64,000 nucleotides of DNA from Haliotis cracherodii (lineage: Eukaryota). The stretch covers positions 57,536,001-57,600,000 of the forward strand of contig NW_027266308.1 in assembly GCF_022045235.1 (NCBI RefSeq). Direction: 5' to 3'. The position numbers were made by a program, and so were the translations under genes. Below the pieces are notes generated by a model. That model was not told the DNA's origin. It saw only the letters and a program-made list of their open reading frames with translations, and searched no databases. Positions 1,342-64,000 of this stretch are shown piece after piece; within the stretch, counting starts at the first letter, position 1; each line of letters begins with the position of its first letter.

Positions 1342-1800
1342 TCAGATCCACAATGACATCAAAGAGCTTCTAATATTCATGGAATGGAATATATACAATG
1401 AAAGGGTTTTCATGGTTTCAGAATGACATGACAGCAATATGTTAAATTTATGCAATGTAGGATGGACATAATATTTTCCCGGAATATATTTGTTACTAAG
1501 ATTGTTATATGTTTTACAAATAAACAGAAAATGGTATTCGTTTTCGATAAGACCAATGTTACATAAATTTAGGTTACAAACTCTTTGGTCGATTGGGACA
1601 TTGTGATATCTGCCCACGCCAATACGGAGTGTATGAGAACTACGTTCGCGGGAAAGCACAGTACGACATTTATCAATATTGCTATTTAGAAGATACGGTT
1701 CAACACAAAAATCTAATTAAAATAAAGAATAGGTATGCATTTTAAAACTACTAGCAATATCTGAATGCCATTCTTGTTCATGAATATATTTTAATCGTGA
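1342..1800 (-). mobile_element. Non-LTR retrotransposon 3' fragment (C-terminal CCHC region)
   Basis: LRIGVGRY..QRVC..C..IENEYHFLFIC is the LINE ORF2 C-terminal motif. Confidence 0.75.
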
Positions 1801-26789: not shown

Positions 26790-27720
26790 AAAACGTTCGC
26801 AGAACAAAGTATTTAAAACGATGTCAAACGAATAGTTCCAACATCACTTTCAATATAATCCCCCTTAACCGCAATGGTTTTGGCCCATTTATCATGCAAG
26901 CTATTTATGCCAGGAATTCCATCAATCACCCTTCAGTTGAGGCCTTCAGACTTTCAGCATCTTCAAACCGGGTACCACGATGGCAGGCTCTCAGATTCCG
27001 GACCAGATTAATCATTAGGAGCCAAGTATGGGCTGTAGGGTGAGTGGTTGAGTTGTTCGAAGCCACAATTGCGATGCCAGCTTGACCAACCCTCGACTTG
27101 TTCACTGGTGCATTGTCACGGAACAGAAATACTCCAGCTGTCAACAGTCCTCTCCCTCTCACTTTGGTTGCTTGCCTCAATGTTGTCTTCAAATGAGCAA
27201 GATAGACACCCACGATTGTTGTTGGAGGCAGGTAGTCAACAATACACACGTCTTTTGCATCCCCCAACAAACGTTTCCCAAACCTTGCCTGCTGATGGCC
27301 GAGTGTGGAACTTCTTTGGCAGTGGGATGTATGGTACTTACTGTTGGGACTCAAGTTCCTAGTGTTGAATCTATGCCTCATCAGCCGTGCATGACAATGG
27401 TGGGATCAGGCTGGTTCTTCTTTATACAGTTCAAGGAGCACGCGAGTTGACTCCATCTTGCACACTGTGGCCGAGGTACCCATCTGGCAGACACCATACA
27501 CACGCCCACATGCTCGTGAAGTATTGTTGGGAGATTGGACACGCTTTGTTCATTTCATCTTGATACAATGATCCTGCACAATGAAGACCTCAACCCCAGC
27601 AATCATTTCATCAGTGATGAATCCAAGACCTTAGATTTTTTTAAGACTTTCTCGGTCTTTCTTGAATTCAGAAGAACATTTTGCAATTGTTGAATAATTG
27701 GGGTCTCCGTCACAATAAAC
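26790..27720 (-). mobile_element. Decayed mariner (Tc1/mariner) transposase remnant
   Basis: DAKDVCIVDYL..RGLLTAGVFLFRDNAP..RGTRFED matches the mariner DD34D core; frameshifted; ends near VKGDYIE. Outer limits approximate. Confidence 0.8.
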
Positions 27721-28910: not shown

Positions 28911-30306
28911 TATAGAAAAGAGATCCCATGTAGCACCATCTCGCTATTACGACCATATGATTCTCCACAAAATGCACGCATCTTCTCAAGCATTTTTCAA
29001 AGCATTTAAAGAAACTGGGAGCATCCCATACATTGATTGACTTCAAACATCCCTTGAAAGTTACGGTAAACTTAGTTAAGTCAAACACCATTCATCCAAG
29101 GTGTTGCCAGGGTTGCGCGGGTTGCCCATTCGTCTACTGCGGCGTCACCTCGGCATTCAAGAAAACTCTGATACAGTTCAAAGCAGCGTTAAACCCAACT
29201 CACTCACTCACTCACTCGTATGTTCCTTTGACATCGAATTACCGTAGTTTATGTGTCACTTTTTACACAGACATTGAATCACTGTTGTTATAAAACACAT
29301 TTGAACATATATTTGCTTATAATTCTTTGTCAACAAATGTGATGATTTGGGCAAAATGCCAAACGTCGCGATGACACTGGAGCGAGTTTACACAATCAGA
29401 CCACTTAACAACGTTCTTCAGGTGGAGTATTTGTCATCGAAGGGAGATAATACAGCCTTGTAATTGCCTGCCTACCGCTAATCGCTGCTGAATCTACTGA
29501 CTGGGCTTGTTCTATCACCCCTCTTGAAGACAAGTGTCTGTCTACTGCCGTTGACATAGACTTGACGCACCGCATAACACACCCGATCACTGTTGTCTCG
29601 CTGTACAGACATGCCATTGTTGCTATACTGTGTGTCTTAAGGGATTTGATTTTACACTGAAGACATGCTCAGAATTTCACTTTATTAGTTACGTGTTGTG
29701 TTTCATTTATAGGGCATATATTAGGGTCGACGGACAATCAATATCAGGCTTTAAGACGAGGAGTATCACAGGTCTTCTTGTAAAAAGTGACATTTTTATA
29801 TATCATCGCTCTAGTTTCGCGTGTATCATTTCAGGTGAGCTCCAAGACAGGACAGTGGACATGTGAGTCATTCATCATGGAGGGGCTTACCTTCGCCCCG
29901 GTCCTGGTTCGAACCCGGGTGTTTGACCAGATGTGGTTCAAGTCACACCACCCTCGGGATTGCGGGTAGCCGTTCTCAGATCCGGAGGCATTGGAAAAGC
30001 AGCACCAATAAATGTGGTTTTTGTGAAAGAAACATTTAAAACATGGATTTATCTACATATAGATGTATTGTATGATTCCATATACAGTCGAACCCCCTGA
30101 CTGGAACTCACATGTGTCGAATCCCCGGTTGTGTCGAGTTCACAGTCCGGTCCCGGCACACTCTCACTATATTTATCACTACGTTAATCTGGATGAGTCG
30201 AACTGGATGTGTCAAATTCCCGGTTATCTCGAACACAATTTAAAGAGTTGAAAGAAGATAAAACTTACATTGGATTTGGGGGTCAGTAAGTCTCCCAGAA
30301 CTAAGA

Positions 30307-31007
30307 ATGGCCTTCAACACAACTGACATTACAACCCTCCAAGGGGAGTACTCGTCCCCCCTCAACTCTGTCCTCATCTTGTTCACAGTCGTGGGGGTAG
30401 TGTTGAACTTCGCGTCCATCCTTGTGAAGCTCCTGCTAAAGTTCGCTATGCCCCACACGTGGAAACTGTCCTGTCTTCTACTGGACGTGTCTCACTTCAC
30501 TCTGGGACTAGGTCTAGCGTTGTTGCTCTGTTATATCAGGTTCCAGGCGGAGAGTTTATGTAAAGCAGCAGGGTTCTTTCTCATGGTCGGCGTCCTTGAC
30601 TGCGTCAGCGTCTACCTCATATCCAACGTCATCATCCTATTTGTGCAATACCCAGAAAAGCTATCGGGGTATTCCCATTACCCAAAATGGACTATTCCAG
30701 CCATGTTGGTCCCGGAGAAGGCGTTCACTCTCCTACTCGCCCTCTTCCCCTTCCTCCCCATCCACTACTTCAACGACAACGACGACCCCTACGTGATCAC
30801 CTGTCTCCCCGTCCGGGAGACTAACGCCAAGGGAGCGGGGTATGGTGCCGCGTTGATGTTCATCTCTTGGATAGTCCTCAGCATTGCCGTCATCGTCTGC
30901 ATGGTGACCACGTTCAGACTGTGGAAGAGCTCCGGAGGGAGGATCCACGCCTCATCTCCGAACATCTGGCAGATGATGATGCTGAGTCAGGGCAAGACGT
31001 ATCAGAG
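30307..31007 (+). CDS. Exon 1 of the 7TM-pseudokinase gene (TM1-TM5)
   Basis: ATG 30307; N-glycosylation sequon NTT at residue 4; TM3 starts LCKAAGFF; ECL2 contains TCLPV (LGR/RXFP-like disulfide Cys pair); donor AG|GTTTGT after 31007. An upstream coding exon cannot be excluded because the frame is open back to 30262. Confidence 0.85.
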
Positions 31008-34000
31008 GTTTGTCTTTAATGTTTTCTTTTAAATTTGTGTTGGTGTGTATGTTCCTTGCCATTTGTCAACTCCCAATGCAATAACAGGTTTATCTCAAAG
31101 ATTAGGTGGTGCGATAAAATGGGGTTTTACGTCGCGTTCGAGATTATTGCCCTTACATAGCGACATCCTTGTGTGTGTGTGCGGGGTACAATGTATGAAG
31201 CATATTTCTGGTGTTCCCCGCCGTGTAATTGCTGGAATATTGCTAAAAGCAGTGTAAAACCATACTCACTGACTCACTCACTCACTCACTCGACTTCAGT
31301 TACACGCCAGACATGAGTTTATCCAAATAAACATATGCACATGTAATTACTGATATTTCCTCTACAATATACATACCTATATAATTACATTAAACCATCT
31401 CAGTATTATTTCTACTCAACAAAACCTATCAAAATACATGAGATCCCTCATATCCTATATATCCTGTCATAACGCAGATATTCACGAGCGATGCATGTCT
31501 TGTTAACATGAGTAACATTAATGCTACTTTGAAACTCCACAGCCGTGAAGGTCAGTTCCTATTGGTGGCATGGTACTAAAACATTATGATCGTGATTAAG
31601 ATACAGTCCCACTGAACATTTAACACCCTGACATATACATCCAAGTCTGCTGTATCTAATCCAGACAACTCGGCTTATTACAGGGAATTGCAAAATAGCT
31701 GTAGCATTACTGACTGCATTTAGTCATTATGCCTGCTGAAAGGTTGTGCCCTATTGTTAAGATCCTATGTATGGCCTGTGGAACAACGCCTTCATATTTG
31801 ATAGACTTAGTGAAGAAGTACCAACATGTTGGAAGCCTCAAAGCTACTAACAACTATGTGCTACAACTTTCAAATTTAAGTCTTGGATCCTTTTCCTATT
31901 CTGCACAAAGGTTGTGGAACGTTTTACCACAGGATATCAGACTTTCTGCTTCTCTCCAAGCCTTCAAGTCAAAGTTCAAAACCCCTCTCTTAGAAAAGTG
32001 TGCTGCACATCTCCTAGGTAGCGCTATGAAAAACTATTTTATTTTATTTTTTATTACTTTTACATGATAAACATGAAATGATCAAGTCCATCACCCTCTA
32101 CCTCCAAGGTTCCTCCTTTTGGAGCAGCTGGTGTGGATGGTGGTGTTGTTCATGACGACGGTCATAATCTACACCAACACATCTCGGCTGCTGGTACCTC
32201 AGTGGATCGCCGTCGTCGCCCTCAGTGTCAGCACCTTCTTCCACGCCGTCCTCAGCAACATCGTTACCATCCTCTGGAGCACCCTGTGTTGCAGGACGAA
32301 GCAACAGACCAAAGAACCCTACCAGAAGCTGAAGAAGCTGGAACTGCTGAAAATAGAGGTAGGTTGGATCGCTTTCCTTGCAAAACCTTTTGTGAATAAA
32401 GATTGTTCACAGGCTGTGAGTTGTACATAAGCAGTATATATTCAAGAAATGAAACCAATAAAGTAACATTTGGGTTTGGTTTGACAGTATGGCGCAGTAT
32501 GGCGCAGTATAGCAGACCTTTTCAGCAGAATCTGTAGATGGACACAGAGGACAAATTTAAACGATGCACTCTGATTGTCTGATTTTATTGCGTACAGACA
32601 CTACACGGCGTTGGGTGGAGGTTCTCAATAAAACGAAACTTGAACCTGGCGCCATACTATATGAAACAATGACACAGTGTACTCCATGATCCATATTTCG
32701 TTCAATATTCCACCCAGGCCCCCGGCAAGTTGCGCATGAAGGCCACGTGGTCTGTGGGTAAGGGCGTGTACAGGCGTGGTCTGCTGAAGGTGTACGGGGT
32801 GGACCACCTCAAGGCGTGGGCCCAGGAGATCGTCATCCTGGGGATGATGAGGAAGACACAGAGCGCCAGTCTGCTACAGTGTCTGTGGACCAACAGCGGC
32901 AACCCGTACTTCGAGACGATGACGCTAATCACTGGGGAGATCATCCCTGGCGAGTCAAGGTAAACACATTCCCACTTTCTCATAACTCCTCGATATGGTG
33001 CCTATTTTCTGTCTATGTCTAGCTTTTCAAATCTGTGACTTGTGTCAAACGGAGAAAGTGTCCGTTAGGGATAATCATAAACTGCTAGATTAATATTTCA
33101 TCAATTAAAATTTACAAACATGACAGGAATAAATGTGGTATGTATGGACGGTCAGTTGACCTGAGTCTGCCCTCAACTAAGGTACCGAAGTAACAATAGA
33201 CTACATGGTTGAAGCGATGTCAGCTTTCTTCCTTCTGACAGTAACTGGTCTGTCTCTAATTTGCATAATGTGGGTTTCAGTGACGTGCAACAACTTTCAG
33301 TTATTCAAGGTTTGCTCGTGTGTGTGCCGTGTCAGTTTATGTTACTAGTTTGTAAATCCTTAAAGTCTCATGTAAAAACCAACAAATGACAGTTTTACAT
33401 TGTTTCCTACGACGTTTGGTGTTTCCAATCATTACAATATGTTCCTTTCAACACACATCGTTGTTTTAAATAAGAAGCGACTAACGGGATCTGGTGGTCA
33501 GGCTCACTGTCTTGGTTGATGTATGTCATCGTATCCCAATTGCTTTGATCGATGATCATGATGTCAATCACTGGATTGTCTGGTCAAGACTCGATTGTTT
33601 ACAGACCGCCGTCATATAGCTGGAATATTGCTGAGTGCGGCGTTAAACAACAAACAACATGCTGTTTTAACTTGTGTTTTCTACACGTATTGGCGTATGA
33701 TGGTAGAGGAGTATTAGGAGACGCGAATGGGTGCATGACTATGAATAGCCAGGATGACTATCCTATAGCTCGCCAAGAATAAATGCCACATCTAATCTCA
33801 AACTGTCAACGAGAGCAGGCCTGTAAACAAAGATATTTCATAAGCTTAGACTTCTTTGGTGCATGAACACTATACCAAGATCTACATGACATGGCATAGT
33901 TTGTCTACAGTCTTATCCACTCTGCTTCGCTGCTTCAGTAATTCTCTACATTCTGATCAGATCGGGCCGTCAGTGTCGCCCGCCGCAGTGAAAGGGTTAT

Positions 34001-37000
34001 TGTTGAGACAGTGATCTTTGTAGGATATATGATCAGTAATCACCAGCCCTGTCACTGTTTGGTGTATTTGTATGATTAGCGATTGTATACTTGACACTAG
34101 AAACATATTGTCTTGAAGATAGGGTTTTCCATAATTATAAATAAAAATCCGTTGAGCTACTCGGTAAGTGCAATAGGTCGAGACAATGTATGTAGATAGA
34201 CACCGTGACCCGCGAGTACTACGCAGTGACACATGGTATATAGCAATGTGACCATTGACAAACAGACGAAGGGCCATGTTTTCACACACTGTTACACACG
34301 GTGACTAACTGCATGTCATACACTGAGTTATAGTATTATGCACAAGAAGGTTCGGACCAAGATCAGAAAATGTTATGTTCGGTCATGAATTAATGTACAA
34401 CTTTCATAAACAGTTTTACTTATTACATGAAAAACCTACCCTTGACTTCCTCCGCCTGTATTTAACAGATTTCCTGAGAACCTTTCCATTGACCACTGTG
34501 AAACCTGTTTCACTGACCTTGCTAGACATTGGCGTCAACCATTTCAAATACCTTCTTGATAACCATCATTAACAACCACTTACATTGGACGTACACCTCA
34601 ATGACTGCAATGATAATGATTCCATTGACTGCTTTCATTGACTACTCTGACAACTGTTACATAATGTACTATGACAATCATTCCTTTGACTGCTAACACA
34701 ATCATTCCTTTGACTGCTAACACAATCATTCCATTGACAGCTATGCCAATCTTTCATTGACTCCGTGACAATCATTCAATTGACTACTATGACAAAGATC
34801 CCATTAAGTACTTTGACAATCATTCCTTCGACTGCTAATACAATAATTCCTTTGACTGCTAACATAATCATTCCTTTGACTGCTATGCCAATCTTTCATT
34901 GACTACTGTAACAACCATTCCATTGACTGCTATGACAAAGATCCAATTAAGTACTATGACAATCATTCCTTTGACTGCTAACAATGATTCTTTTGCCTGC
35001 TCAAACTAATTCCTTTGACTGCTATGACAATTATTTCTATGGCGACCTTGACACCAATTCCATAGTTCCATGACAATAATTGCAATGATTTTTTTTAAAA
35101 TAGATTCTACTGACATCTTGAAACCCATCATTAAGATCTTTGTACTTTTGTGGCTTGCAGTCGATCAAATGGTTACACTTCTCGCCTTTGAAAAGTATAG
35201 CTTAACTTATGACTCGACGTATGAAAAATATGTTCAAAGGTATTCACAAAAGAATAAATCTCTCTCAGGTCCTTTTGTTAAAAGGTACCTCGACTTGTGT
35301 TCTGACCAACTGCAAAAACCATGATATCGTTCATCGAAAGTACAATGCTTAATTAAATGCAACCACTCTGCTACGGACAGCCAATTTCAAAATCAAAGGC
35401 GATCCTTCCAATGCCAGGTACCGCGTGAGAAAAAAAATTCTCACGGCATTTTTCTACCACGGAACTAGCTAAAACTTATTTCAGTCATGCATGTGTAATA
35501 TGCACACGTGAGCTAGGAAGGTGAAGAAGGGACAAGAAATAGCCCTGAGACAATAAGGAAGTTGTCATCCGTAAAAGCCTAATGTGTTAATTAAAAGTTT
35601 TCGTAAGTTTCATAGGCAAGTTGTGAAGGTATTTATCAAAAGGAAACCGTTGATCAGCGTGTATCTAACACAGGGTTTACATTGACTCTCTGTAGACTGA
35701 TCTGCTTCGAGTTCACCAACAGCGGCACCCTGGACGACTTCCTGCACCATCTGGACATACCGCTGCCGGAGCCGTGTCAGAGAACCATCATCCACGACAT
35801 CGCTGAGGGCCTCTCCTGCCTCCACAAACACAACATCCTCCACCACAAACTCACTTCCGCCTCCGTGTTCCTCAAGGGGTCCGTACAGGTGTGTGTACAG
35901 CTATCAGTCACAATATACAGTAAAACCCCGTTAATCCGGTCGGAAGGATTCCCACTGAAATCGTTCGGATTAGCAAATATCTGGATTAACGTTTGTTGCG
36001 TAAGAGGTAAAGCCACTAAATGTTCCGAGGATCCGCAGATCGTGGTAAAGATTTGAGTTGCACCCCTTAGTTATGCCAGGATCCACTGATCGTGATTTTG
36101 AATCCAATTTTCGCCTTAATTATGACCCTTGGTTTGTCAGTACCACATAGTGCTCGTGGTTTCCCAAAAGGCGAATGTCTACAACATATGTCTCTTTTCC
36201 GCCTAAACGTACCTGACACGCCGTGATATAATTGAAATACTGTTAAAAACAAACTAGCTATCTCGGGGTCTTTTCTGACATAGTTGAACGTGCATCATTA
36301 TTTAATAGAACGAGGAAACAAGAATAAATATCTCTAGTTAAAGGAAATACTTTTCTCCAAAAGAGCAAAAATAATCTGAGTGAGTGAGTGAGTACGGTTT
36401 TACGCCGCTTTTAGCAATATTCCAGCAACATCACGGCGGGGGACACCAGAAATGGGCTTCACACATTGTACCCATGTCGGGAATCGAACCCGGGACTTCG
36501 GCGTGACGAGCGATCGCTTTAACCACTAGGCTACCCGACCGCCCCAAATAATAATCTGAAATCAAATCGTCACATACGGCTACAATATAACAATACTGAT
36601 GGTGCCTTAACCTAACACAAGAACACACATCTCGTTAAACAACAACAACTTCTCGTGCTGTCTCGGGGCATGATATAGGATCACACTTTTAAGATCCAGT
36701 TCTAGAAATACGAAATTCTAGATACACATAATTGTAATGTGTTCAGATCTCTTTCAAATTTCTCAAACATGATTTTGTTTTTTTTATTTCTTCAATTGAC
36801 TGTTTTCTTGCGAATCCCTAATCACTACTAATTACATGGAACCTGAGACTTATCCCCTCTAAACGGCACCAAGAAAACGTAAATTCAGGGGAACCCGATA
36901 GCGCTAATGGTCCCCCAGATATACAACGCCCGGTGGTGTATCTACCAAATTATGCCTCGCACACTGCATTATTCCTGGGTCAATGGACAGGCTGAAAGCG

Positions 37001-40000
37001 TACAGTGGGGTCTTGTCAAAGGAGACGCTGTACACAATGCCAGCACTGCTGACGTATAGTCACTAAATCGAACCGGGAAGATAGGGTTTTCTGGCATGTT
37101 TCCAGCACAAGCATGGCGGGGTACCTGCATGTAGGGGATAGAGGAGAGGGGTGGGTGCCGAGGAGAGGGGTAGGTGCCGAGGGTAGGGGAGGGCCAAATG
37201 GATCTTTCAGGGACGGGCCAAGTAAAAGGTAGGATAAGGGTCATATTTACCGCACGGGATCGGCATCATTTAAGAAAAACTTAGGATTTGTTCATTTGGA
37301 TAAATGACATCGTTAAATGGATAGATACGTAGAAAAGGATAAAATGTGTCAAACAGACCGATTTTATAGGTTAACATTTGAACATGAGGAAGTCTTTGAA
37401 CCAAGCTCATTTTCATAGATGCACATAAAAGACACAAAAAGATGTACAAAAATATGGTAACACATTGACTAGCTCATGACGTGAAGTCTGCCCTTTTTAC
37501 ACACATCAGCAATATTTGCGTGTAAGAAATAGGCCAGTTGCCATTTGAATATGTCTAAGTTATATACTAATAGTTCAAAGTTTTCTGCAACTGTTAAATT
37601 AAACATTTCCAGCTGGCCAAAAAGAGCTATTATCCCACATGCCCAGGGAGAGATGGGGGCGCCGGTGGCCCGCTCGTCTGAGGCGTCGCAATTTGCTGTG
37701 TAGAGTTGCGTCCCTTGGGCACGCCAGAAACCTATGATTGTGATCTCGAATCCCAGTCCGCCCCCGTTATGTTTCTAGGTTTGTCAGAACCATACCTGTG
37801 CTCGTGGGTTTCACCAAAGTGGTAAACGTCTGGGACCTGCATCACTTCGAGCTCTCCTCCCACACTATGCTGACACGCCGTGATATGACAGGAATACTGT
37901 TTCATCAATTAATCACTCTATTTCTAAAAAAAACACCCACGGTGGTAATAGTTTGGAAGATGATGCAAATTTGCATTTTACAAGATGTCGGTTATACTGC
38001 ACAAACATCTGGCGACATCTAAACATTTTGCTTGACACAGTCAGAATCAAAGGTTTTTGTCTATTATGCATATGAATTTTGCAGGGTTGTTTTTTTTTAA
38101 AATTGGAATTCTGGTATACAGTAATATTTCTGTATTTTATGATATTAGGATACTGCGTATATTTATATGACAAACATTTGGATATGAATTCATGGAAAGC
38201 TTCACATTTAAACAGGTAGTGGAGTTCATCGGTGATAGCTGGCGGCATACACAGTTTACCATGTCCTTAATTCTCTATCAATACCACGCCACCGGCCCAC
38301 TTTGACAGGTAGATTATGCTTACAAGTTTTATATTTCAGAATAGGATAATAAATTTGTATAGATAGGAGAAGAAAGTTTTCCAATGACGGGATATCTTTT
38401 AAGTATTGATAATAATACCGTTTTGAATTTTTCTCGATGTCATATCTCCAATTTTGATAAAACTGATCTTTTAAAGTCCTTCCACCTGAGCAATTAGCAA
38501 CTGGCTTAAAACGCTTTATGGGTCATAAAATACATTGGATAGACCAATAAATTAAATATTTGCCTGGTATTTCTTATCCAGATATTTTATTGATTATCAG
38601 ATAAAAATTGCCAAATGAGCCAACTTAGGGATAAGTTGCGATAAATTCGGTGCAGGTCCGGGTTAACTAAGTTTATGCCAGAAGCCAACTACCAGTTTAG
38701 CTGCATAAATCGATAAGGGTACCTACCTAGTTCTCCAGACCCTTGAAGATCCGGGGTAGAATAGGTCTTCAATAACCCATGCTTGCCGTACAAGGTGACT
38801 ATGCTTGTCGTTAGAGGCGACTAAACGGAAGGGGTGGTCAGGATGGCTGACTTGGTTGATAAATGTTATCGAATCCCAATTGCGTGGATCGGTGATCATG
38901 ATGTCTGGTCCAGACTCGATTATTTACAGCCCGCCGTCATATAGCTGGAATAGTGCTGAGTGCGGCGTTAAACAACAAATCAATCAATCAATCACAATAG
39001 AACGTCCGTACCTTTGGTTTGTCTGAATAATGAAAATCGGGTGGTCATAACTTACAACATAGACTTGCTGTGTCATCTTGTTTGCCCGGATGGTATGGAA
39101 CATTGATCAATGTAAGTCTACTGAAACTCGATTATGTACAGGTCAAACAACAAACAAACAAACAAACAAACCTAGTTCTCCATAAAACCATAAAATTTGG
39201 GGTTGCATTTCTAAGACCACAGGGGGCACGGGGGGCCCAGTCGTGTAAGGCGCCGCGATTCGCTGTGTAGAGTTGCGTCCCTTGGGCACGCCAGAAACCT
39301 AAGATTGTGTGGAATCCCGGTTTGCCCCGAATATGTCTCTAGGTTTGTCAGCAACATATCCCTGCTCGTGGGTTTCATCGAAGGGGTAAACGTCTGAGAC
39401 CTGCATCACTTCGGGCTTTCCTCCCACATTTTGCTGACACGCCGCGATATGACTAGAATACTGTTAAAAGCGGCGTTAAGCCCAACTCACTCACTCACTC
39501 ACTCACTCACTCACTCACTCTAAGACCACAATCTAGTTTAAGGAATGTTGAATGAATCTTTTCTATTATGGTCAAATTTTCGTATACCCATAAATCACAG
39601 CCCAAAAATAATGTTGTTGATATTTACATCAAAGGCCCTATGTTCAAAGCGGCGTTAAACCCAATTCAATTCATTTTTGGAGATCGGAGGAAAACAGGAG
39701 AGTTTTTAGGAACGGAGATAGAGGTAGACGCCAAGACATTCGAACACTCCATATAAGGAAGTGATGTATCGATAATCTTTTGAATACGAGAAACCGCCAA
39801 AAAGAAACATGAAGTATTAAGTTCGAGAACCTACACTCTCGAATCTGTAAATTGTACCGTACGGACATCGGGTTTTCAAGCTATTACTATTTTTACTATT
39901 TTTACTTTGACTTTAATACTGTATGTGAATTTATTTCGGTCTATAACAGTGATATGTGCCAAACGAAACAAATTCATACGTTTAGTCTTTCAAGACCCAG

Positions 40001-43000
40001 CGCATATTATTCGCGTCTTCGTGTATCTACGTTATCACAAGGCTCTGTCAGCTTTAGATTCAAATCCTTTTTCAAGATTGCTATTTACACACAATTCGAG
40101 TTTGAAGATTAAATCCCTTTTTTTCTTGTAACTCTCCTATCATCCCATAGTAAATCTTTCCTCGATTACCCCACAGTGGCGCAGCGCCACCTGCCGGCCC
40201 TGACCTGCTCCGCCAATGTATGTATTGTCTACGCCCACAGGTAACCTACACTGCTGAAATATCAGGAGATCAAAACATGACTGGGATTCCCAAGGAGTGA
40301 TCTATCTGTCTAAGTTCAATATCAGTAACCTTATCTGATGTATTGCCAATATACTTTTCCGAATAGGCTGAAAACACAACCCTTTGTGTAAATAGAGCTT
40401 TGAGAGTATTACGGGATAAAAGTGAAGTGTTGTTATCAAGAACTGAGGATATATTTTTCCTACTGTTGTATTAACAAATCCCTGATAAATTGTTATCTTT
40501 ATATTGTCAGGGTGGCATTAAGATTATTGCACAGTTATACCCCATGAGATTGTTGTTGTTAAACCACGGACATATCGAGAACCCGTTGGAATTCCGGAGG
40601 AAAATAAGTCCCCATTTTCAAGGCTTGTCATAAAAGCTGACTAAAGAGAATTTGATGGTTAGGTTCGGTGACCTTACTTGTCATTGCTTTGTTTGTTTGT
40701 TTGTTTGTTTGTTGTTCAACGCCGCACTCAGTAATTTTACAGCTATATGACGGCGGTCTGTGAAATAATCGAGTCTGGACCAGACAATCCAGTGATTGAC
40801 ATCATGAGCATCGATCCACGCAATTGGGATCGATGACATGTATCAACCAAGTCAGCGAGCCTGACCACCCGATCCCGTTTGTCGCCTTTTACGACAAGCA
40901 TAGTCACCTTTTACGGCAAGCATGGCTTGCTGAAGACCTATTCTACCCCGGAATCTTCACGGGTCTACTTGTCATTGCAGCGATCGTTGCTCATGATGTC
41001 CCGGGCGGCTTAAACAACATTCCCACATTCACATTAGGAGATCAACATCTTATTTTTATATACACAAAAAGGAAGAGTACACACAAAGTGTCCCATCATT
41101 ACGTAGCCTCAATCTTAAAAGTAATTCCACATAGTGCTCGTTATTTTTGTTATAATATTCTGCTTGTATTAATTGATCTGTCGTCCAAGGAAAGTCATGA
41201 GTCACCACTTTTCGTAAGAAAAAGATATACATACATACTGATGGAGTGAGTCAGTGAGTGAATATGGTTTTACGCCGCTTTTAGCAATCAGAAATGGGCT
41301 TCACACATTGTACCCATGTCGGGAATCGAACCCGGATCTTCGGCGTGACGAGCGACCGCTTTAACCACTAGGCTACCCGACCGCCCCTATACTGATGGAA
41401 AGAAATAAGGGAACACTTAGTTTTAGACACCGTTAAATGATGTGACATCATGGGTTCCACGCCTTGGAAACAATGCACACAAACACATCTCAACATTTGA
41501 TTCTGACATGTGTTTAATTTGTATGCGCGCTATTTCAAAGTAATGAAAGAGAAGCTAATTTTCTAATATTTTTTATTGTTCCCTTATTCGTTTCCATCAA
41601 TAAATGAAGAAAAGAAGGACAGAAAGGTGTTCATGATTACTTTCTTTATGGGATCAATGTAAACGTTTCAACATGACTGTGTGTATCTTGCAGTGCATGG
41701 TGTTGCGAGCAGCTCTTGGCGACTTCGAAGCTGCCCAGATCTATGGCTCACTACAAGGTGGCTCATCGTCCAGCTCACAGGTCAGCAAGAAACAGTTCTT
41801 CCTCCCGGACATACGGGCATTTGCTCTCGTTGCCTTGGAGATAATTGGATACGTGTGCAAAAAGAGAGAGGATGAAAAACAGCCATTCAGAAAAACCCGA
41901 AGTGAGATTGTGATAAGCTCCCAGAAAAGTGGCAATCCAAAATCCCGTGAATCTGTACAAGACCTGGCACATAAATCCCGTAGTTTAGACGAACGAGCTA
42001 TTCTAGGAGAAACTGGATTAAATAATATTCCTCCATTTGGTTCTCTAGTAAATGTGAAAGAAGTTGATCCACACCCCAACGTTCCGGAGGAACAAGATGC
42101 ATGGGCACAACCTGTGACGTCTGTAAGGATTACAGGTAAACGTAGTGATGCGGGACAGTCTGAGCATGATCACTTTAGTCGACATGCTACTGATGATGGA
42201 CGCTGGCAGAAGGGGAGTGTTCCTTATAACTCCCCTAAAGGACATGCCCAGGATACACCCACGCCAGTGTTCAGGGCGGAACCTCCACTATATGAACATG
42301 ATTATGAGGAGATAGAAGAAATCACGGAACAAATCCAAAGAGATCAAATTGTCATTCAGCAAATCCGTTACCCACGAAAAGATGACAATAGGTCAGATGA
42401 AAGGTCCTGGCGAGATTATCCGAGCGGTGCGCATTATTCGGTACCTGCAGATGTAAGTAATCCTCGTTTCATTGACCAGACTCAGAAACCTAATTTACCC
42501 AATAGGAACGCAGTAGGAGGAGGAGGCGTGTTTTTCAGGTCAGACCCGCTCCGGTACTCAGCCTCCTCTGTCAGTACCTTGGAGGACATCGAGGAGGACC
42601 TCCCGGAGGTGACTGGGGGAGGCGAACATGTTGCTGCCACCTTGAAGGATCTATGGCTCAAAAAGGAGGCAGATAAGAAGGAACGGTTACTGACATCCTA
42701 CAATGAGAGAATGAAAAAGGAGTTGAAAGATGTGTTTTCCAGGAGGAACAGAAAGAGGAAAGACCAGGGCGTGTCCAGAGAGACAGTGCAGGAAATCTCG
42801 CGACCTTTGTCAGCACGGAGTTACCACGACAATGGCACAACTGTTGTTGTTCCATTCAGTGGAGGTGAAAAGGAGACACATTTTGGTGATAGTAGACAGA
42901 AAAGACCACAAACTGCTCGACCCGCTCAACGGCAGATGTCTGAAGGATCGGGTAAGCCTGTGCCTCGGCGTCCTGCACCTCCACCACCACCACGGCCTGT

Positions 43001-45692
43001 GACAGCAGCAGCCACGACTCGTCCTCAAACACCAAGTCACGGAATAAAGAAAGCACAGGCTAGAACAAAACTTAAAAAAGTATTGGGGCAGAAGCAAAGT
43101 TCTGTTTTAACCAATGCCAACTTAAACAATACTCGGGGTCAGGGTGCATCCATTGTTGAAATGAAGTACGCATCAGTGAAAAAGATTCCCCAAATAAAAG
43201 ACTCCTTCAAAGGTTCTGAGGCTGATATGGATTGTGAACGCCTGCCACCTCCGCGTCCACAAACTGTTCATCCCAAACCTCCTAAAGTTGGGCATTTTTC
43301 CAGTTTCAGCAGCAATGATAGTCTAGGCAGCAGTTTCTATAAGCACTCTCCCAGGAAGGCAGACGTGTCCCTTACCAGCGGAGAGCTCACGTCCTTGTCC
43401 TCTCAGGCAGATACAACTCTACCTGAGCACGATGTGGAGGACGTCATTGAACTTCCTCCAACGTACGAGACTAAAGGTGCACAAAAGGGGGGAAAGATTA
43501 TTGATAGTGGCTTTGATAGTGCATCTATTGCAAGCGAGAATTCTTGCGATGTTTCCATGGTTGACGAAAGGTCCTGTTCCTGTCCATCTGGAAGCTACAC
43601 GACTGATACGTGTAGCTGCCAGTGTTCCATCACACCAACATCAGGCATGCATACCAAACCACTGTATGACAGACGGACATCATGGAGTAAAACCGATTCG
43701 TTTTCATCCTATGACTCTACAGACCTGGATCAAAAGCTTGAGAGACTCCGTAATGGAGATGTGCGTCCTTCAAAGGATGTGATTGGTCCAGATGAACAGT
43801 ACCCTATGATGGCTGCTGCAGCCAAGTCTAAGACTGCTCATCCAACACAGTGCAGTCCACACCAAAATAAGAAACATCTTGGTAAAGTTGTGACCAAGAC
43901 CCAGCGCACGAGGAGACATGATTTCGGATCGGCGAGCAAACGCTACAAGGAACTCCGAAAGAAGGGCATTCCTCTGAGAGTGTCTGTTGTATCCAGTGCA
44001 TCGTCCCAGGATGTGTCTGATGCCACAGATTGGGACTCATACATGGAATCTACAGCTGAGGTCATTGAAGAGGAGGACGACAGTGTTATTGATGATAATG
44101 ATGATGCAATTTTCAATGCTCTTGACTCGCAAGGGGTCTTTGAACCCTCAGACACTGATTCCTCCATGGGTGTGAGACCTCTGCACCACACGAGGCCCGT
44201 GGCAGTGGTACATGGAACCAAAAGACCTCGCGATACAGACAATAGAACCAATGCAATGATCCTAGAAGATATTATCCGTGAACTACCTGATGAAATAACT
44301 GGGGCATCTTCAATGGATGATGAAACACAGTCTTTCCTGCATCACTCTGAACCTAAAGCTGAATTCAAAGATGAGGAGGAGATTGTGGACATGGCTATAG
44401 AGATTCCGTATAAGCCATCGTCAGTCGTGGATGCGGAGTTAGTTATTGACAGACTGTTCACAAAGAGGAATACGCTGAAACACAAGGGAAGCCTTCAGGA
44501 TGTGATGGACCCTATTCTAGGGTTTGATGAAAATCTTATCAGAGAGTTAGCCAGCCCCACGTCTTCCTCTGGTAGGCAGACGGACCTCCCTGTACAGATG
44601 TTGAAGGGAGTGACTAAGACCCATGTGCAGGCGTGTAAGGAACTGTCCAGTAAGGTTCCATTGGTGCCCTTCTCGGAATTGTTTCCTGCTACTAATGGTC
44701 AGTTCAGGGTACTCAGGTCAAGACTAGAGCAGGTGGGAAACTTTGGAACAATTGGGAAGCAGGTGAGTCCACTCTACATGCCTCAAACATGGCTTATCAC
44801 ATACTGACAACACCTTTCAAGTAAAATACAGTTACAACTTTCATGTAAAGTTATTCTAATTCCACAGTCCCTTTGGTAGATATAGGGAGATCTGCACTGG
44901 AGGCCGTACTCAGCAACATTCCAGCTATATGACGGCGGTCTGTAAATAATCGAGTCTGGACCAGACAATCCAGTGATTGATATTATGAGCATCGATCCAC
45001 GCATTTGGGATACGATGGCATGCATCAACCAAGTGAACGATCCCGTTAGTCACCTCATACGACAAGCACAGTCGCCTTTTACGGCAAGCATGGGTTATGG
45101 AGCGCAGATAGTCCTGATATACATAAGACGCATTTTTCTGGTTGTAGTTTTGATGTTGGTATCCATGCCCCTACGTGCACGTTGCGCTCTACATCCCTGG
45201 TGAGCCTTAAGGGGTAGCCTAGTGGTTAACGTTTTCACTCGTCACGCCGGAGGTCCGGGTTCGCTTCCCCCATTTACTCTCTGACTATTTAATTTCGAAA
45301 TATGTCTTCTTTTTTAACTGGTTATGTATCAGAAATATGTTTGTTGGTTTTCAGGTGTATATTAATGAGTGAGTGAGTATGGTTTTATGCCGCTTTTAGC
45401 AATATTCTAGCAATATCATGGCGGGGGACACCACAAGTGGGCTTCACACATTGTGTCCATGTCGGGAATCGATCCCGGGTCTTCGGCTTGACGAGCGAAC
45501 GCTTTAACCACTAGGCTATCCGACCGCCCTCGGGTGTATATTAAGCATTATCCTTACAATACATGTTTTACATGTAACGATCTGTTTCAGCTGTTGGACT
45601 GTGTCCAGCTGTGTTGGGTGAGTGACAGTCCGCCCTCGGCGTCCGAGCTGGTCAGTAGACTACTGGACACAGTCACGGAGACTGAACTCTGA
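30307..45692 (+). CDS. Spliced gene for a 7TM receptor-like/pseudokinase fusion protein, 1518 aa: join(30307..31007,32109..32358,32718..32959,35696..35888,41694..44762,45591..45692)
   Basis: Six exons with GT..AG boundaries and matching phases (2,0,2,0,0). Total 4557 nt = 1518 codons + TGA. Exons 1-2 give seven hydrophobic helices; exons 2/3-6 give kinase subdomains in the correct order. Confidence 0.85.
31740..32020 (+). mobile_element. L2/CR1-group LINE 3' fragment in intron 1
   Basis: PSYLIDL..SFSYSAQRLWNVLPQDIR..SLQAFKSKFKT is a typical L2/CR1 ORF2 C-terminus. Confidence 0.7.
32109..32358 (+). CDS. Exon 2 of the 7TM-pseudokinase gene (TM6, TM7, CC motif, linker)
   Basis: Acceptor ctacctccaag|G completes an Arg codon; encodes FLLLEQLVWMVVLFMTTVIIY and WIAVVALSVSTFFHAVLSNIVTILWSTLCC; donor GAG|GTAGGT. 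Confidence 0.85.
32718..32959 (+). CDS. Exon 3 of the 7TM-pseudokinase gene (kinase N-lobe)
   Basis: Acceptor ccacccag|GCC; GLLKVY (VAIK-type Lys, 32787), KAWAQEIVIL (alphaC Glu, 32826), SLLQCLW (HxNIL-equivalent); donor AG|GTAAAC. Confidence 0.82.
33471..33659 (+). mobile_element. 5'-truncated family B copy
   Basis: Matches the 3' two-thirds of B. Other partial or old copies at ~24825-25050, 44900-45096, 48806-49040 and 57605-57790. Confidence 0.75.
34600..35075. repeat. Degenerate ~23-bp minisatellite in intron 3
   Basis: ACAATCATTCCTTTGACTGCTA(TG) repeats. Confidence 0.8.
35696..35888 (+). CDS. Exon 4 of the 7TM-pseudokinase gene (hinge, alphaE, degenerate catalytic loop)
   Basis: Acceptor ctctgtag|A; LICFEFTNSGTLDDFL and DIAEGLSCLHKHNILHHKLTSASVFL match kinase subdomains V-VIb; donor CAG|GTGTGT. 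Confidence 0.88.
36378..36545 (-). mobile_element. SINE family A
   Basis: Reverse copy; TSD AATAATCTGA at 36370 and 36550. Confidence 0.85.
37654..37900 (+). mobile_element. SINE family C
   Basis: Matches the 39222 copy. Further copies at 2647-2899 (-), 3193-3366 (+), 14655-14889 (+) and 36130-36250 (partial). Confidence 0.8.
38090..38620 (-). mobile_element. Decayed LINE 3' fragment
   Basis: DELHYLFKC..YPNIIK resembles the same CCHC tail; AT-rich and degenerate; limits approximate. Confidence 0.55.
38738..38993 (+). mobile_element. SINE-like family B
   Basis: GACCCTTGAAGATCCGGGGTAGAATAGG...GCGGCGTTAAACAAC followed by (AATC)n. Confidence 0.85.
39222..39519 (+). mobile_element. SINE family C (tRNA-Leu-like head with a long A-B box spacer)
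   Basis: TSD CTAAGACCACA at 39211 and 39520; (CACT)n tail. Confidence 0.85.
40182..40198 (-). promoter_or_regulatory. Candidate CTCF site in intron 4
   Basis: Reverse strand reads GCCGGCAGGTGGCGCTG, one mismatch from the CCASYAGRKGGCRC core. Confidence 0.3.
40688..40965 (-). mobile_element. SINE-like family B inserted in an older B relic
   Basis: 13-bp TSD TACTTGTCATTGC at 40675 and 40966. Confidence 0.88.
41246..41387 (-). mobile_element. SINE family A (internal deletion)
   Basis: TSD ATACTGATGGA at 41235 and 41389. Confidence 0.85.
41694..44762 (+). CDS. Exon 5 (3069 bp) of the 7TM-pseudokinase gene: DFE, alphaF, then a ~930-aa low-complexity insert
   Basis: Acceptor atcttgcag|TGC; RAALGDFEAA (subdomain VII) and PDIRAFALVALEII (subdomain IX); 1023 stop-free codons; donor CAG|GTGAGT. 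Confidence 0.88.
45366..45529 (-). mobile_element. SINE family A
   Basis: TSD GGTGTATATTAA at 45354 and 45533. Confidence 0.85.
45591..45692 (+). CDS. Terminal exon 6 of the 7TM-pseudokinase gene (subdomain XI and ETEL tail)
   Basis: Acceptor ctgtttcag|CTG in phase 0; reads LLDCVQLCWVSDSPPSASELVSRLLDTVTETEL*, matching the kinase CW..P..RPS motif. This frame is not in the ORF track. Confidence 0.82.
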   Translation: MLDCVQLCWVSDSPPSASELVSRLLDTVTETEL

Positions 45693-46058: not shown

Positions 46059-46322
46059 AAACATGTATTGTGATTACAACATATGCTGTGCATGTATTTG
46101 TATTCAGAGGTAATGTTTGACTCTGGGTCGCCTAGCCTTGGACCAAAACATGTATTGTGATTACAACATATGCTGTGCATGTATTTGTAATAAGAGGTTA
46201 TGTTTGACTCTGTGTCGCCTAGCTTTGGACCAAAACATGTATTGTGATTACAGCATATGCTGTGCATGTATTTGTAATAAGAGGTTATGTTTGACTCTGT
46301 GTCGCCTAGCCTTGGACCAAAA
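46059..46322. repeat. 87-bp tandem repeat, three copies
   Basis: Units start at 46060, 46147 and 46234. Confidence 0.9.
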
Positions 46323-48468
46323 CCACTATAAGTATTATGTTCAAAACACCATTTAATGGTTGCAGGATGAAGTCTTTGATGTGAAGTTTGACGTTGGTGT
46401 AACTAGAATGCGTGATACATCACAGTTTGAGAGCTGATTACCCTAGTGTGACAGATCCTTACTTACAATACCAAGTAGTTGTTAGATGAATGACTGTTCT
46501 CCACTTTTCATATATTCATGAAAAGTTTCACCAAACTGTGGATTTATATACCTCGTCATATTCATTTCACATTTTTTATTAAGGCGCCCTGAAACTAAAT
46601 ATAGACAAATCGCAATTCTCTTTTGTGGCAAAACGATTCTAAACTTTAGTCTTTGCGGGTAAGATCGCATAGCATCATTGAAGTGTCCCTTACAAATTAA
46701 ACCCTTGTGAGTTTACAAATTAGCTGTTATATGGAGTTGAAACCAATAGAACCTGCCAATACGTGGATGGCCTACGACTGATCAAATTAGGTCCAAAGTT
46801 TATATTTTGTACTTGTGGCTGTAACTTGTGTCTAAACTTTACTAGCAAAGCCTCTACAGGAGATGCAATGATAGGCACATACATAGCATGACTGTCTTGA
46901 ATTTGTTTTTAGATACATAACATTCTTCCTCCAGAAAGATGAATGAGCACTATGACACTGATGTACTGATAGACATCCCCTTCAACACAGTAGCGCGTGC
47001 GTGCGTGGCTGCGTATACTAGTCCGGACTTATGCCGGTTTCATAGTGCTACTCACACGAATACCCCTCCCAGACACAGTATACTAGACTCCGAGCCGACC
47101 AATCCTTGTAATGCCTAGCGCCAGGCACGGTAACAACGTGTACCATCTTTAAACGTGTTTTCGTATGACGCTGCCAGAGGATCGAACCTCCGACCTGTGT
47201 ATCATATTGTTTCCATCGTATTTTTGAAATTGAAACTGTGTCCATGATGGTGCTGCTTGTATGTCTGTAACTTGTACCCTGAACCCAGAGAGGAACTGAA
47301 CCCCGGTCTTCAGCCAGAGGGGCCAACGCTTTAGCCACGAAGCTACCCGACCCCATTCATGTACTGAAAAGTGCAGAATCGGTTTTCAAGAGATATGCGC
47401 CACTTCCACCATATAACCTTTATGGGCATTGTGTTGGTTATGATTGACTTGACGTTTGTAGTACAAATAATGATATATGTATCTTAAAACTAAACACATA
47501 CAAAGCTTTAGGAGTTTCTATGGGATAATACATTTTGTCTGCATTTAAAGTTCAAACCACCGATTATGTTTTGCGCATCCATTACTCTCAACGTTTTTAC
47601 TATATTCACATTGTATGTATAATCACAATATGCAGTTGTATCTTTTTAGCAGCCTAAGAAATTCAGGTCTTTTAGGACTAGCACTAGTCCTCTCTGGACT
47701 AGCGGAAACTTATTTTCTCTAGTCCTCAGAATGTGTAGCTCGTGCTGCTTGAACCAGACAAAAATGTTTAATATGTTTACATTTTCTGTCACTTGTATTC
47801 AGTTTATTGCAAACTTGAAGCATTGAGAACTGGTTCAGAATTGTAGTCCTAGTTTATGAGGACCACCATCACTGGATTTTTACTTGTCCTCAACACAATT
47901 TAGTTGTCTTAGGCTAGCGGACTAGCTGGAATTTCGAATGCTGCATGGATTATTTTGTTATATACTTTCTGTACCGTCCAGATCTACCCTGTGGTATTAT
48001 TGTTAGATATGTGATTTTATACACATCTACGTACTTTATTTATGTATATACCCCTTATTAAAATAGCTATACATTCATTGGCCATTAATGTTTCAATAGT
48101 CTCAGGACAATCTTCCAGGACCAAGCGGGTTGACCCCTGCATCCATACAACCTGTACCATAGAAAATCTTGTCTGTCAATCTAAGTGATATCAGTCACAA
48201 CTGAAATAGGAAGAAGTAAAATCTCAATAGGAATGGCCATATGGGGTTACCTATTTAAGCATGTACAGCACCTTGGCTTAAAGACCGGGTGAATAAACAT
48301 AGACTCATGGAGTGTTGTGACTTTGCGGTTCTTCCTCAGCAGTTAAAAGGTATAAGGAATGGATGAGTTGGATTTAACTCCACATCCAGTAGTATTTCAT
48401 TTATATTTGTCTGCTTAATGTGGGAGGAAAGCCAAAAGAGATGCAGGTCCTGGAAACCCACAACCATG

Positions 48469-63651: not shown

Positions 63652-63875
63652 TGAGAGTCACCTGGAGGGGCCCTTGCCGTCCTTAGACGACTTGGGCTTC
63701 CCCCAGTTCCCCTTCTTCCCGCGAAAGGGCTGCTGAGAACCCTTACCGGAGCCCTCAGAGCGGGGCTTCTTCCCGGAGGAAGAAGGACCCGACCCCTTAG
63801 GCCTGCCGGACGCAGCATCCTGGGGCGCGCTCCGCTTCGGAGCGGCACCCAGGCGCCTATGCAAGGACCCCACAA
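61719..63875 (-). pseudogene. DIRS pol: reverse transcriptase, damaged RNase H, adenine-methyltransferase-like domain
   Basis: GFYSRIFLVPKK, IDLKDAYLHVPI, LPFGLSSAP, YLDD; RNase H remnant TDNTT..N.LADALSR; MT-like DLFAT..AYAYPP..APMWP..WY. Confidence 0.9.
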
Positions 63876-64000
63876 GATCCAGTGTGTGCCGAGAGGCCTC
63901 GGCAGCCACAGCGGCCTGTTGTTCCTTCAGAACCCCAGGGATCTTGTTATTAAACAGGGTCCGAGCAGACCAAGGCTGCGAAAGGAGCACCTCCTGATTG
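63658..64000 (-). CDS. DIRS ORF1 (gag-like), basic C-terminal end
   Basis: Lys/Arg/Gly-rich ORF with a QPFRG-type motif, overlapping the start of pol as in DIRS1 elements. Confidence 0.65.
   Translation of the reverse strand, partial: NQEVLLSQPWSARTLFNNKIPGVLKEQQAAVAAEASRHTLDLVGSLHRRLGAAPKRSAPQDAASGRPKGSGPSSSGKKPRSEGSGKGSQQPFRGKKGNWGKPKSSKDGKGPSR

Follow-up and report, generated by a model that had tools for sequence, protein, structure and literature searches.

Receptors in which a cytoplasmic protein kinase fold comes straight after a seven-helix (7TM) domain have been described as GPCR-bigrams. They comprise GPCR-TKL proteins of oomycetes and amoebozoans, GPCR-TKL/K proteins of choanoflagellates and GPCR-TK proteins of choanoflagellates and sponges; the available text of these reports names none beyond sponges among animals and does not call the kinases dead (PMC5784254, PMC12716839). 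Sea-urchin GPCR-TMKs, animal proteins that likewise join a 7TM domain to a C-terminal kinase, are covered by one sentence of the accessible text, which places them in the TK clade and carries no identifiers (PMC10463195). The text available on LGRs mentions no kinase tail (PMC4079206, PMC8286064). A pseudokinase is defined by loss of at least one of the VAIK Lys, the HRD Asp and the DFG Asp, and in the accessible part of that source HxN pseudokinases, HER3 and JAK2 JH2 among them, are reported to have low activity (PMC13519141). No description of an LGR-type 7TM-pseudokinase family was found in the literature, where the published fusions are those of protists, choanoflagellates and sponges, together with the one sentence on sea urchins.

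A member of such a family is encoded in Haliotis cracherodii, in a window of 64,000 nucleotides that forms the whole stretch of DNA analyzed here. Six coding exons (30307-45692, Table 1) specify a protein of 1518 residues, in which an LGR-type 7TM domain is followed, some 10-15 residues past TM7, by a kinase domain without the catalytic Asp. With a probability of roughly 0.6, this single spliced protein is a membrane scaffold that is likely non-catalytic and independent of G proteins. The first-pass annotation had reported a kinase domain at 32718..41850. The domain does lie there, but its first strand is in the preceding exon and its last helices are at 44583-44762 and 45591-45692. The analysis supports a larger point that the annotation had missed, namely that a 7TM protein derived from LGRs carries this kinase domain as its cytoplasmic tail, and that the domain's C-lobe is split.

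Table 1. Features of the Haliotis cracherodii gene, in window coordinates.
Feature	Position	Strand	Content
Coding exon 1	30307..31007	+	aa 1-234: short N-terminus with NTT sequon, TM1-TM5, third intracellular loop
Coding exon 2	32109..32358	+	aa 234-317: TM6-TM7, Cys cluster after TM7, linker, first kinase strand
Coding exon 3	32718..32959	+	kinase N-lobe: degenerate Gly loop, K341 (32787), E354 (32826), conserved beta4-beta5 insertion
Coding exon 4	35696..35888	+	hinge, alphaD, alphaE, catalytic loop HHKLTSAS (35841-35864) without Asp/Asn
Exon 5 start	41694..41873	+	DFE (41721-41729), shortened activation segment without APE, alphaF (Asp501 at 41808)
Exon 5 insert	41874..44582	+	about 900 aa, Ser/Asp/Pro/Arg-rich, poorly conserved, with conserved islands, inside kinase C-lobe
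DSGFDS motif	43503..43520	+	fits DSGxxS beta-TrCP phosphodegron consensus (candidate)
Exon 5 end	44583..44762	+	conserved helical module; likely resumes kinase C-lobe (alphaG region)
Coding exon 6	45591..45692	+	subdomain XI (alphaH-alphaI) without conserved Arg, ETEL class I PDZ-type end (candidate), stop

The family is set apart from the GPCR-bigrams, by their descriptions, in having an LGR-derived 7TM domain and a kinase without the catalytic Asp, in spanning cnidarian to amphioxus and molluscs, and in the splitting of its C-lobe by 300-1200 residues in bilaterians. The sea-urchin GPCR-TMKs are compared by description only, and echinoderms do carry the family. Type C LGRs (RXFP1/2, GRL101) share 7TM sequence and fold with it, and the Nematostella relative has an LDLa and LRR ectodomain, whereas the mollusc protein lacks this ectodomain as well as DRY, CWxP and NPxxY. 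Comparable HxN-type and receptor pseudokinases are HER3, JAK JH2, PTK7 and the kinase-homology domains of guanylyl cyclases. In these, as in the family, the catalytic Asp is replaced (mostly by Asn), the Lys and DFG Asp are kept and the domain is membrane-proximal. In contrast to all of these, the Haliotis protein is seven-pass rather than single-pass and its chain contains neither active kinase nor cyclase, and its family also lacks the Mg-binding Asn and APE and carries a giant insert. The closest intact kinase seen is P0160, itself an undescribed protein of 771 residues, which has the same N-lobe pattern and likewise carries the beta4-beta5 insertion (26 residues, against 25 here; hhalign probability 98.1 over 191 columns). 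Unlike the family, P0160 has a single TM, intact HRD, DFG and APE, no insert and a Cys-rich ectodomain, for which a match to FZ_RECK is weak and below the cut-off.

The 1518-codon frame is open throughout and its introns are GT-AG. All six exons lie in order, with contiguous record coordinates, on a single public contig of 5637 nt, and there is a RefSeq protein with 98% identity to the gene product. Exon joints 2-3, 4-5 and 5-6 are bridged in all four runs (four studies), joint 3-4 in three of the four and joint 1-2 in two; the bridging contigs are presumed to be RNA, no listed run being recorded as such, and were used for bridging only and not for expression level. A hidden ectodomain exon was considered and rejected. 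Exon 1 encodes no ectodomain, an in-frame TAA (30259-30261) stands 45 nt upstream of the ATG, and contigs from 3/4 runs begin upstream of this stop and continue through it into exon 1.

By sequence and predicted model, the 7TM domain derives from the relaxin-receptor (LGR) type without its ectodomain. The family profile has RXFP1 as its best match (E 2.2e-22) and TSHR as the next. An AlphaFold model of residues 1-522 contains seven helices, mostly at pLDDT 70-96; the top four Foldseek rows are LGR4, and VIA returned rhodopsin (Z 22.1, rmsd 3.3, 264 aligned) tied with a nematode LGR (Z 22.0, rmsd 3.0, 249 aligned), both searches covering the 7TM domain only, given that the kinase lies at pLDDT below 50. 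All seven gastropod and bivalve rows retain the TM3-ECL2 cysteine pair (C85 and C166, invariant in the alignment), and the third intracellular loop is conserved. DRY, CWxP and NPxxY are found in none of the same seven rows, while deuterostomes have W-P and a partial NPxxY and Nematostella has DRF, CWMP and NPVLY. No LDLa and LRR ectodomain was found in the aligned homologues other than Nematostella P0106, in which the full LGR ectodomain is present (LRR, LDLa, MAM, CUB, 7tm_1). Pfam misses the family because the 7TM domain has drifted past detection and the kinase is split: 7tm_1 gave no match for P0001 or P0002 at E up to 10, and single-exon searches matched neither the 7TM exons nor the long one. 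The Atlas clusters were generic 7TM-like and kinase only.

The kinase domain was detected on a single exon by Pfam (PK_Tyr_Ser-Thr, E 2.3e-7, above the cut-off) and by matches to PDB kinases down to E 2e-16. The AlphaFold model, in which the pLDDT falls below 50 over residues 343-522, does not confirm the kinase fold, and the exon-3 peptide folded alone has a mean of 48. No other part of the protein is as well conserved as the kinase, which is under purifying selection, with a median identity across 30 other molluscs of 64%, as against 42% for the C-terminal module, 32% for the 7TM domain and 18% for the insert. Among the 40 variants listed of 279, changes are synonymous at 5/5 codons in the kinase, 13/17 in the 7TM domain and 9/17 in the insert. 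The kinase part is identical to that of H. rufescens, where the variants listed are synonymous only.

The motif losses that had been proposed for this pseudokinase are borne out, and they are conserved across 32/32 gastropod and bivalve homologues, none of which has an intact HRD/DFG, so that selective loss rather than decay is indicated. The beta3 Lys (LLKVY) is present in 31/32 (one gap) and the alphaC Glu (WAQE) in all 32. Where HRDLxxxN reads HHKLTSAS, both the catalytic Asp and the Mg-binding Asn are missing; the catalytic position in the 32 mollusc proteins is N in 30, K in one and R in one, and never D, the Mg-binding Asn is found in 0/32 and the catalytic-loop His in 32/32. The H. cracherodii copy has Lys at the catalytic position, which across the family is N, K, R, L, S or A. 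DFG reads DFE, with DF in 32/32 and the Gly replaced by E (31) or D (1). Molluscs also lack the conserved Arg of subdomain XI. Some details had to be amended. The Gly-rich loop, described as absent (IEAPGK), is degenerate and spans the junction 32358/32718, yet 31/32 retain G320 in the beta1-beta2 turn. APE is indeed absent from the activation segment (0/32; none between DFE and alphaF), but only Haliotis has the long Ser run; what is conserved is a short spacing of 23-25 residues from DFE to the Pro before the alphaF Asp (32/32). The insertion before the hinge strand exists but is a net 15-19 residues or so rather than about 25: the beta4-beta5 stretch is 25 residues long as against 8-14 in 30 canonical kinases, and hhalign against one canonical kinase opens a gap of 19 residues there.

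The domain thus combines a kinase fold with loss of the HRD Asp, which is the sequence definition of a pseudokinase, and the HRD Asp is absent in 19/20 family rows compared. In the remaining row, the hemichordate Saccoglossus, the Lys, Glu, catalytic Asp and Asn are kept and DFG reads DFT; these residues speak against a family-wide pseudokinase reading.

The TKL-like character that had been suggested is in line with the best PDB kinase matches, which were LIMK1 and LRRK2 in one search and LIMK1, TYK2 and RAF in another; the best matches are mostly TKL (LIMK1/2, LRRK2, RAF), and also include TYK2, PLK4 and ULK. A quick kinase tree assigns no kinase group; it was built with SH-aLRT only and with 30 canonical kinases chosen by score, without named references, and its branches leading to Nematostella, Lingula and Watersipora are long. 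A likeness to TGF-beta receptor kinases (STKR) was not recovered, given that no STKR is among the best 60 rows listed (166 and 1304 sequences matched overall), nor among the 10 rows listed for P0160. STKR are single-pass receptors with a Cys-rich ectodomain, whereas the Haliotis protein has seven helices and no ectodomain, and STKR membership was set aside.

Both sequence and modeling suggest that the alphaG-region module and exon 6 likely resume the kinase C-lobe after the insert of about 900 residues, an insert that measures 314-1221 residues in 13/13 bilaterian rows. A family profile of the last residues finds its best match 48-57 residues past the alphaF Asp in 23/36 intact kinases, with nine matches scoring above 3.7 bits, the maximum reached by 20 shuffles. 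Exon 6 alone gave no kinase match against the PDB. The predicted complex of residues 298-522 with 1420-1515 lends weak support, scoring 0.52 as against 0.00 for the best control, in a range (at or below 0.60) where passes are made up of 5/78 solved pairs and all four passing mismatches; at least 19% of contacts recur between its runs and the partner pLDDT is at least 52. Likeness to solved kinases can explain the score of this pair.

Within the insert, the beta-TrCP phosphodegron consensus DSGxxS makes DSGFDS a candidate degron. DSGFD[S/T] is present in 28/32 mollusc proteins and a looser pattern in 29/32, and DSGxx[S/T] in 8/12 other bilaterian rows and missing in four, where shuffled inserts lead one to expect 6-9%. 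The terminal ETEL is, similarly, a candidate PDZ ligand by its consensus, with a PDZ-type C-terminus in 30/32 molluscs and in 9/13 other rows, and missing in four of these.

Absence of catalysis and binding of a nucleotide are both predictions from the kinase motifs. In the mechanism proposed, the N-terminal part of the kinase would fold together with the last 95 or so residues into one bilobal domain from which the insert loops out. The retained Lys, Glu and DFG Asp would hold this domain closed, possibly with nucleotide bound, so as to present a docking or allosteric surface. The 7TM domain would anchor the pseudokinase and may relay a conformational or partner-receptor signal directly to it. 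Phosphorylation of the insert by other kinases could allow an SCF/beta-TrCP-type ligase to switch the receptor off through DSGFDS, and ETEL may tether the receptor to PDZ scaffolds. Several points count against this reading: some GPCRs signal without the canonical motifs, Saccoglossus keeps the Lys, Glu, catalytic Asp and Asn, HxN pseudokinases are reported to retain low activity, the kinase part is modeled at low pLDDT, exon 6 alone matches no PDB kinase, and the PDZ-type end and the DSG motif are missing from some rows.

The 7TM domain could instead belong to a working orphan GPCR, with a small bound ligand and G-protein coupling, whose pseudokinase tail only regulates, like the kinase-homology domain of a receptor guanylyl cyclase. 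The intact class A fold, the TM3-ECL2 cysteines and the third intracellular loop are consistent with this, and the reading may hold in Nematostella, where all LGR motifs are kept. It is nonetheless judged unlikely, given that the mollusc rows have neither DRY, CWxP and NPxxY nor an ectodomain, and that conservation of their 7TM domain is half that of the kinase (32% versus 64%). Rather improbable is a weak or atypical enzyme, which would bind ATP-Mg via the Lys, Glu and DFG Asp and perform low-level or non-canonical chemistry, such as autophosphorylation of the insert or another transfer. Near-complete retention of K, E, DF and the catalytic-loop His in the 32 molluscs would fit such an enzyme, as would the Asp and Asn of Saccoglossus and, in the accessible text of one report, the low activity of HRN-type pseudokinases (PMC13519141). 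Against it, molluscs lack the catalytic Asp, Mg-binding Asn, GxGxxG, APE and subdomain XI Arg, and the catalytic position varies in the family as noted above.

Faulty gene models do occur in the family, with Saccoglossus lacking TM5-7, one Lingula protein joined to an otopetrin domain and Owenia lacking an internal stretch. That the kinase is decaying, that the gene is a pseudogene or that annotation has wrongly fused two neighbouring genes is nevertheless extremely improbable here and was rejected, given the open frame with GT-AG introns, the single spliced contig, the kinase identical to that of H. rufescens with only synonymous changes among the variants listed, and an architecture shared by the mollusc set and by members of seven further phyla. 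A non-catalytic, G-protein-independent scaffold is the preferred reading.

Relatives were found in a cephalopod, brachiopod, annelid, bryozoan, hemichordates, echinoderms, amphioxus and Nematostella, and the Nematostella protein P0106 aligns collinearly with the family over 7TM and kinase (447 columns, probability 97.3). Of 30 proteins looked up (150 listed of 1080 matches), none is ecdysozoan or vertebrate, which does not imply absence from these groups. The history may have begun with an LGR that had a full ectodomain and a compact dead kinase tail, the state of Nematostella; the ectodomain would then have been lost and the C-lobe insert gained in bilaterians, and the last GPCR motifs lost in spiralians. 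A more speculative proposal, with the odds leaning against it, is that of an ancient animal receptor class predating the cnidarian-bilaterian split, in which an LGR gained a dead kinase tail and, in bilaterians devoid of ectodomain, G-protein motifs and catalysis, would signal only by 7TM-to-pseudokinase allostery via a phospho-regulated, degron-bearing C-lobe loop and a PDZ tail. If true, a G-protein-free mode of seven-helix signalling would have been conserved for more than 550 million years. Conserved in the genomes of cnidarian, spiralian, ambulacrarian and cephalochordate animals, the family forms a natural, stepwise series that runs from an intact LGR to a receptor without G-protein motifs or catalysis. 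With this series, one can ask how seven helices signal without G proteins and what roles pseudokinase folds play, in organisms such as Nematostella, sea urchin, Aplysia and oyster. About 20 further matches, of 310-450 residues, contain the 7TM domain only and look like first-exon fragments of relatives.

The window protein is encoded by six exons that together give an open frame of 1518 codons. Haliotis rufescens LOC124140967 (1515 aa, annotated 'uncharacterized') matches exon 1 at 98% identity, and a single public contig of 5637 nt, whose record coordinates are contiguous, carries the six exons in their genomic order. Splicing was followed in four public contig sets, presumed to be RNA, from four studies. 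The joints between exons 2-3, 4-5 and 5-6 are found in all four runs and that between 3-4 in three, while that between 1-2 is found in two among the contig pieces listed. The window is of animal origin and contains both introns and repeats; the introns (for example at 33.5-33.7, 36.4-36.5, 38.7-39.5, 40.7-41.4 and 44.9-45.5 kb) hold many short interspersed repeats with very deep contig cover.

Features of the window, with positions in nt unless given in kb
Feature	Position	Strand	Basis
Coding exon 1	30307-31007	+	region read, GT-AG splice-site test
Coding exon 2	32109-32358	+	region read, GT-AG splice-site test
Coding exon 3	32718-32959	+	region read, GT-AG splice-site test
Coding exon 4	35696-35888	+	region read, GT-AG splice-site test
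Coding exon 5	41694-44762	+	region read, GT-AG splice-site test
Coding exon 6	45591-45692	+	region read, GT-AG splice-site test
Overlapping long ORFs	61719-63875, 61210-63651 (within 60954-64000)	-	RVT_1 E 1e-20, weak phage-integrase SAM-like match
Minisatellite arrays	11.7-12.7, 15.4-16.7, 18.4-20.7, 21.6-22.5 kb		
Further minisatellite arrays	34637-35035, 46059-46323		
Putative LINE reverse-transcriptase tail and mariner transposase fragments	1342-1716 (-), 31714-32067 (+), 37913-38266 (-), 26926-27405 (-)		by eye

Once the exons are joined, the LLKVY, WAQE, HHKLTSAS and DFE motifs of the first-pass annotation and its missing APE are all present as described, and the Gly-rich loop that it scored as lost is degenerate. 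A search with residues 1-520 gave 32 homologues, of which the 28 with names are all gastropods and bivalves. The beta3 Lys is kept in 31 of these (one gap), and the alphaC Glu, the catalytic-loop His, the alphaF Asp and the Asp-Phe of DFG in all 32. The catalytic Asp is found in none (Asn in 30, Lys in 1, Arg in 1), nor is the Mg-binding Asn, the APE or the Gly of DFG (Glu in 31, Asp in 1), so the search for orthologues with an intact HRD or DFG supports the pseudokinase reading. The proposed insertion of ~25 residues before the hinge is the length of the whole beta4-beta5 stretch, 25 residues versus 8-14 in 30 canonical kinases; the alignment gap against one canonical kinase is 19, and the net insertion is thus about 15-19 residues. 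The Ser-rich activation segment holds for Haliotis, to which the Ser run is peculiar; the conserved trait is a short segment of 23-25 residues (32/32). The domain continues past the end of the proposed extent of 32718..41850. The best PDB kinase matches were LIMK1 and LRRK2 in one search and LIMK1, TYK2 and RAF in another, making a TKL-like assignment reasonable; likeness to TGF-beta receptors was not borne out, as none appears among the 60 best rows listed in either search (of 166 and 1304 matches). The two best matches in the first of these searches are LIMK1 chains reading HRN, presumably engineered kinase-dead constructs, and this change from HRD is the substitution seen in most family members.

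After alphaF come ~900 poorly conserved residues and then a conserved module of ~95 residues with ETEL at its end. A profile built from the C-terminal residues of the family was run on 36 intact kinases from the homology-search results; its best match lies 48-57 residues past the alphaF Asp in 23, falls on the strict subdomain XI pattern in 19 and is absent in 4, and nine matches score above the best of 20 shuffles. The subdomain XI Arg normally pairs with the APE Glu; it too is absent from the family, and both partners have therefore been lost together. A predicted complex of residues 298-522 with 1420-1515 lends weak support (score 0.52 versus 0.00 for the best of three controls; contact agreement at least 19%, partner pLDDT at least 52). 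In calibration, scores of 0.60 or below came from just 5 of the 78 solved pairs and from all four passing mismatches, and resemblance to known kinase structures could account for the positive score. Against this stand a PDB search with exon 6 by itself, which gave no kinase match, and the AlphaFold pLDDT below 50 over residues 343-522. The insert contains conserved islands, one of which, DSGFD[S/T], is present in 28 of 32 molluscs and fits the beta-TrCP degron consensus; of the other four, two read DSGFDE, one is truncated and one fits just the looser pattern, at another place. Among the other bilaterian rows, 8 of 12 carry DSGxx[S/T], against 6-9% expected from shuffling. The C-terminus fits the class I PDZ consensus in 30 of the 32 molluscs and in 9 of 13 further rows.

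For the membrane part, AlphaFold predicts seven long helices. Foldseek ranks LGR4 first, VIA gives a tie (Z 22.1 for rhodopsin, 22.0 for a nematode LGR), and for a family profile of 14 rows the best match is RXFP1 (E 2.2e-22), followed by TSHR. An in-frame stop lies 45 nt upstream of the ATG and contigs from three of four runs cross that site unspliced, which argues against an ectodomain. A conserved Cys pair directly after TM7 (aa 294-295, in exon 2) is a likely, predicted palmitoylation site, and 17 of 32 homologues have an NxS/T sequon within their first 15 residues.

A profile searched against 1.84 billion representatives had 1080 matches; 150 were listed, and 30 proteins were looked up by name. 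The 7TM-plus-kinase design is found among the matches listed in Argonauta, Lingula, Owenia, Watersipora, Ptychodera, Saccoglossus, Antedon, Acanthaster, Diadema, Branchiostoma (labelled RXFP2) and Nematostella. In Nematostella LOC5517652 (3282 aa), MAM, LDLa, CUB, lectin and LRR domains accompany an unambiguous 7tm_1 (E 1e-33) and a kinase that is compact, dead by sequence and free of the insert; the protein is collinear with the mollusc profile along 447 columns. About 20 7TM-only proteins of 310-450 aa (P0057, P0072, P0076, P0079, P0082, P0087 and similar), several ending in the same pre-kinase linker pattern, are probably first exons of more family members or of a paralogue. P0199, a 1732-aa Lingula model joining an otopetrin domain to a family protein, is probably a fused gene model.

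We favor, at a probability of about 0.6, a non-catalytic membrane scaffold. The data show the architecture, the splicing, the loss of motifs and the selection; for function, we infer that the 7TM part would serve as an anchor without G-protein motifs, the pseudokinase as a docking or switch surface that could bind nucleotide, the insert as a phospho-regulated loop bearing the degron-like motif, and the C-terminal end as a PDZ tail. A functional orphan GPCR whose tail regulates it is an unlikely alternative: the TM3-ECL2 cysteines are kept in all seven gastropod and bivalve rows, but these rows have none of the GPCR motifs, all of which are present in Nematostella, with W-P and a partial NPxxY in deuterostomes. 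The motifs fade stepwise; the direction in which they changed is inferred, since the quick tree has no true root.

Less likely again is a weak or atypical enzyme. The quick tree joins the 20 family kinases in one group (SH-aLRT 96), and these rows keep the Lys in 19, the Glu in 20 and the DFG-Asp in 16, but the catalytic Asp in 1 and the Asn in 3. The exception, Saccoglossus LOC102809902 (P0200/P0065), has both Asp and Asn; it therefore falls outside the sequence definition of a pseudokinase and is possibly active, although it lacks the DFG-Gly and APE and TM5-7 are missing from its gene model. Among the matches listed, the nearest kinase with intact motifs, the 771-aa P0160, shares the N-lobe pattern and insertion, but unlike the family is a single-pass receptor with a Cys-rich ectodomain; it may represent an active sister family. 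Decay or artefact is scarcely credible. The window protein shares with its homologues a median identity of 64% in the kinase, 32% in the 7TM part, 18% in the insert and 42% in the last 93 residues, and the kinase and last module are identical in H. rufescens. Among the 40 variants listed of 279, all 5 in kinase codons are synonymous, compared with 9 of 17 for the insert and 13 of 17 for the 7TM part. Judged by sequence, the motif losses are conserved and are not decay.

The protein belongs with the known GPCR-kinase fusions and is a conserved 7TM-pseudokinase of LGR descent whose C-lobe is probably split. No description of such a family was found in the full-text literature covered, which takes in few subscription papers and includes parts of PMC12716839, PMC5784254, PMC4079206, PMC8286064, PMC4302439, PMC6321704, PMC4718504 and PMC13519141. 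The main text of the oyster kinome (PMC4883820) does not mention GPCR or 7tm. Sea-urchin GPCR-kinases receive one sentence in PMC10463195, whose table may include a family member.

Elsewhere in the window, 60954-64000 is likely an intact-looking DIRS-type tyrosine-recombinase retroelement, and the minisatellite array at 18-21 kb produces a strong C skew.
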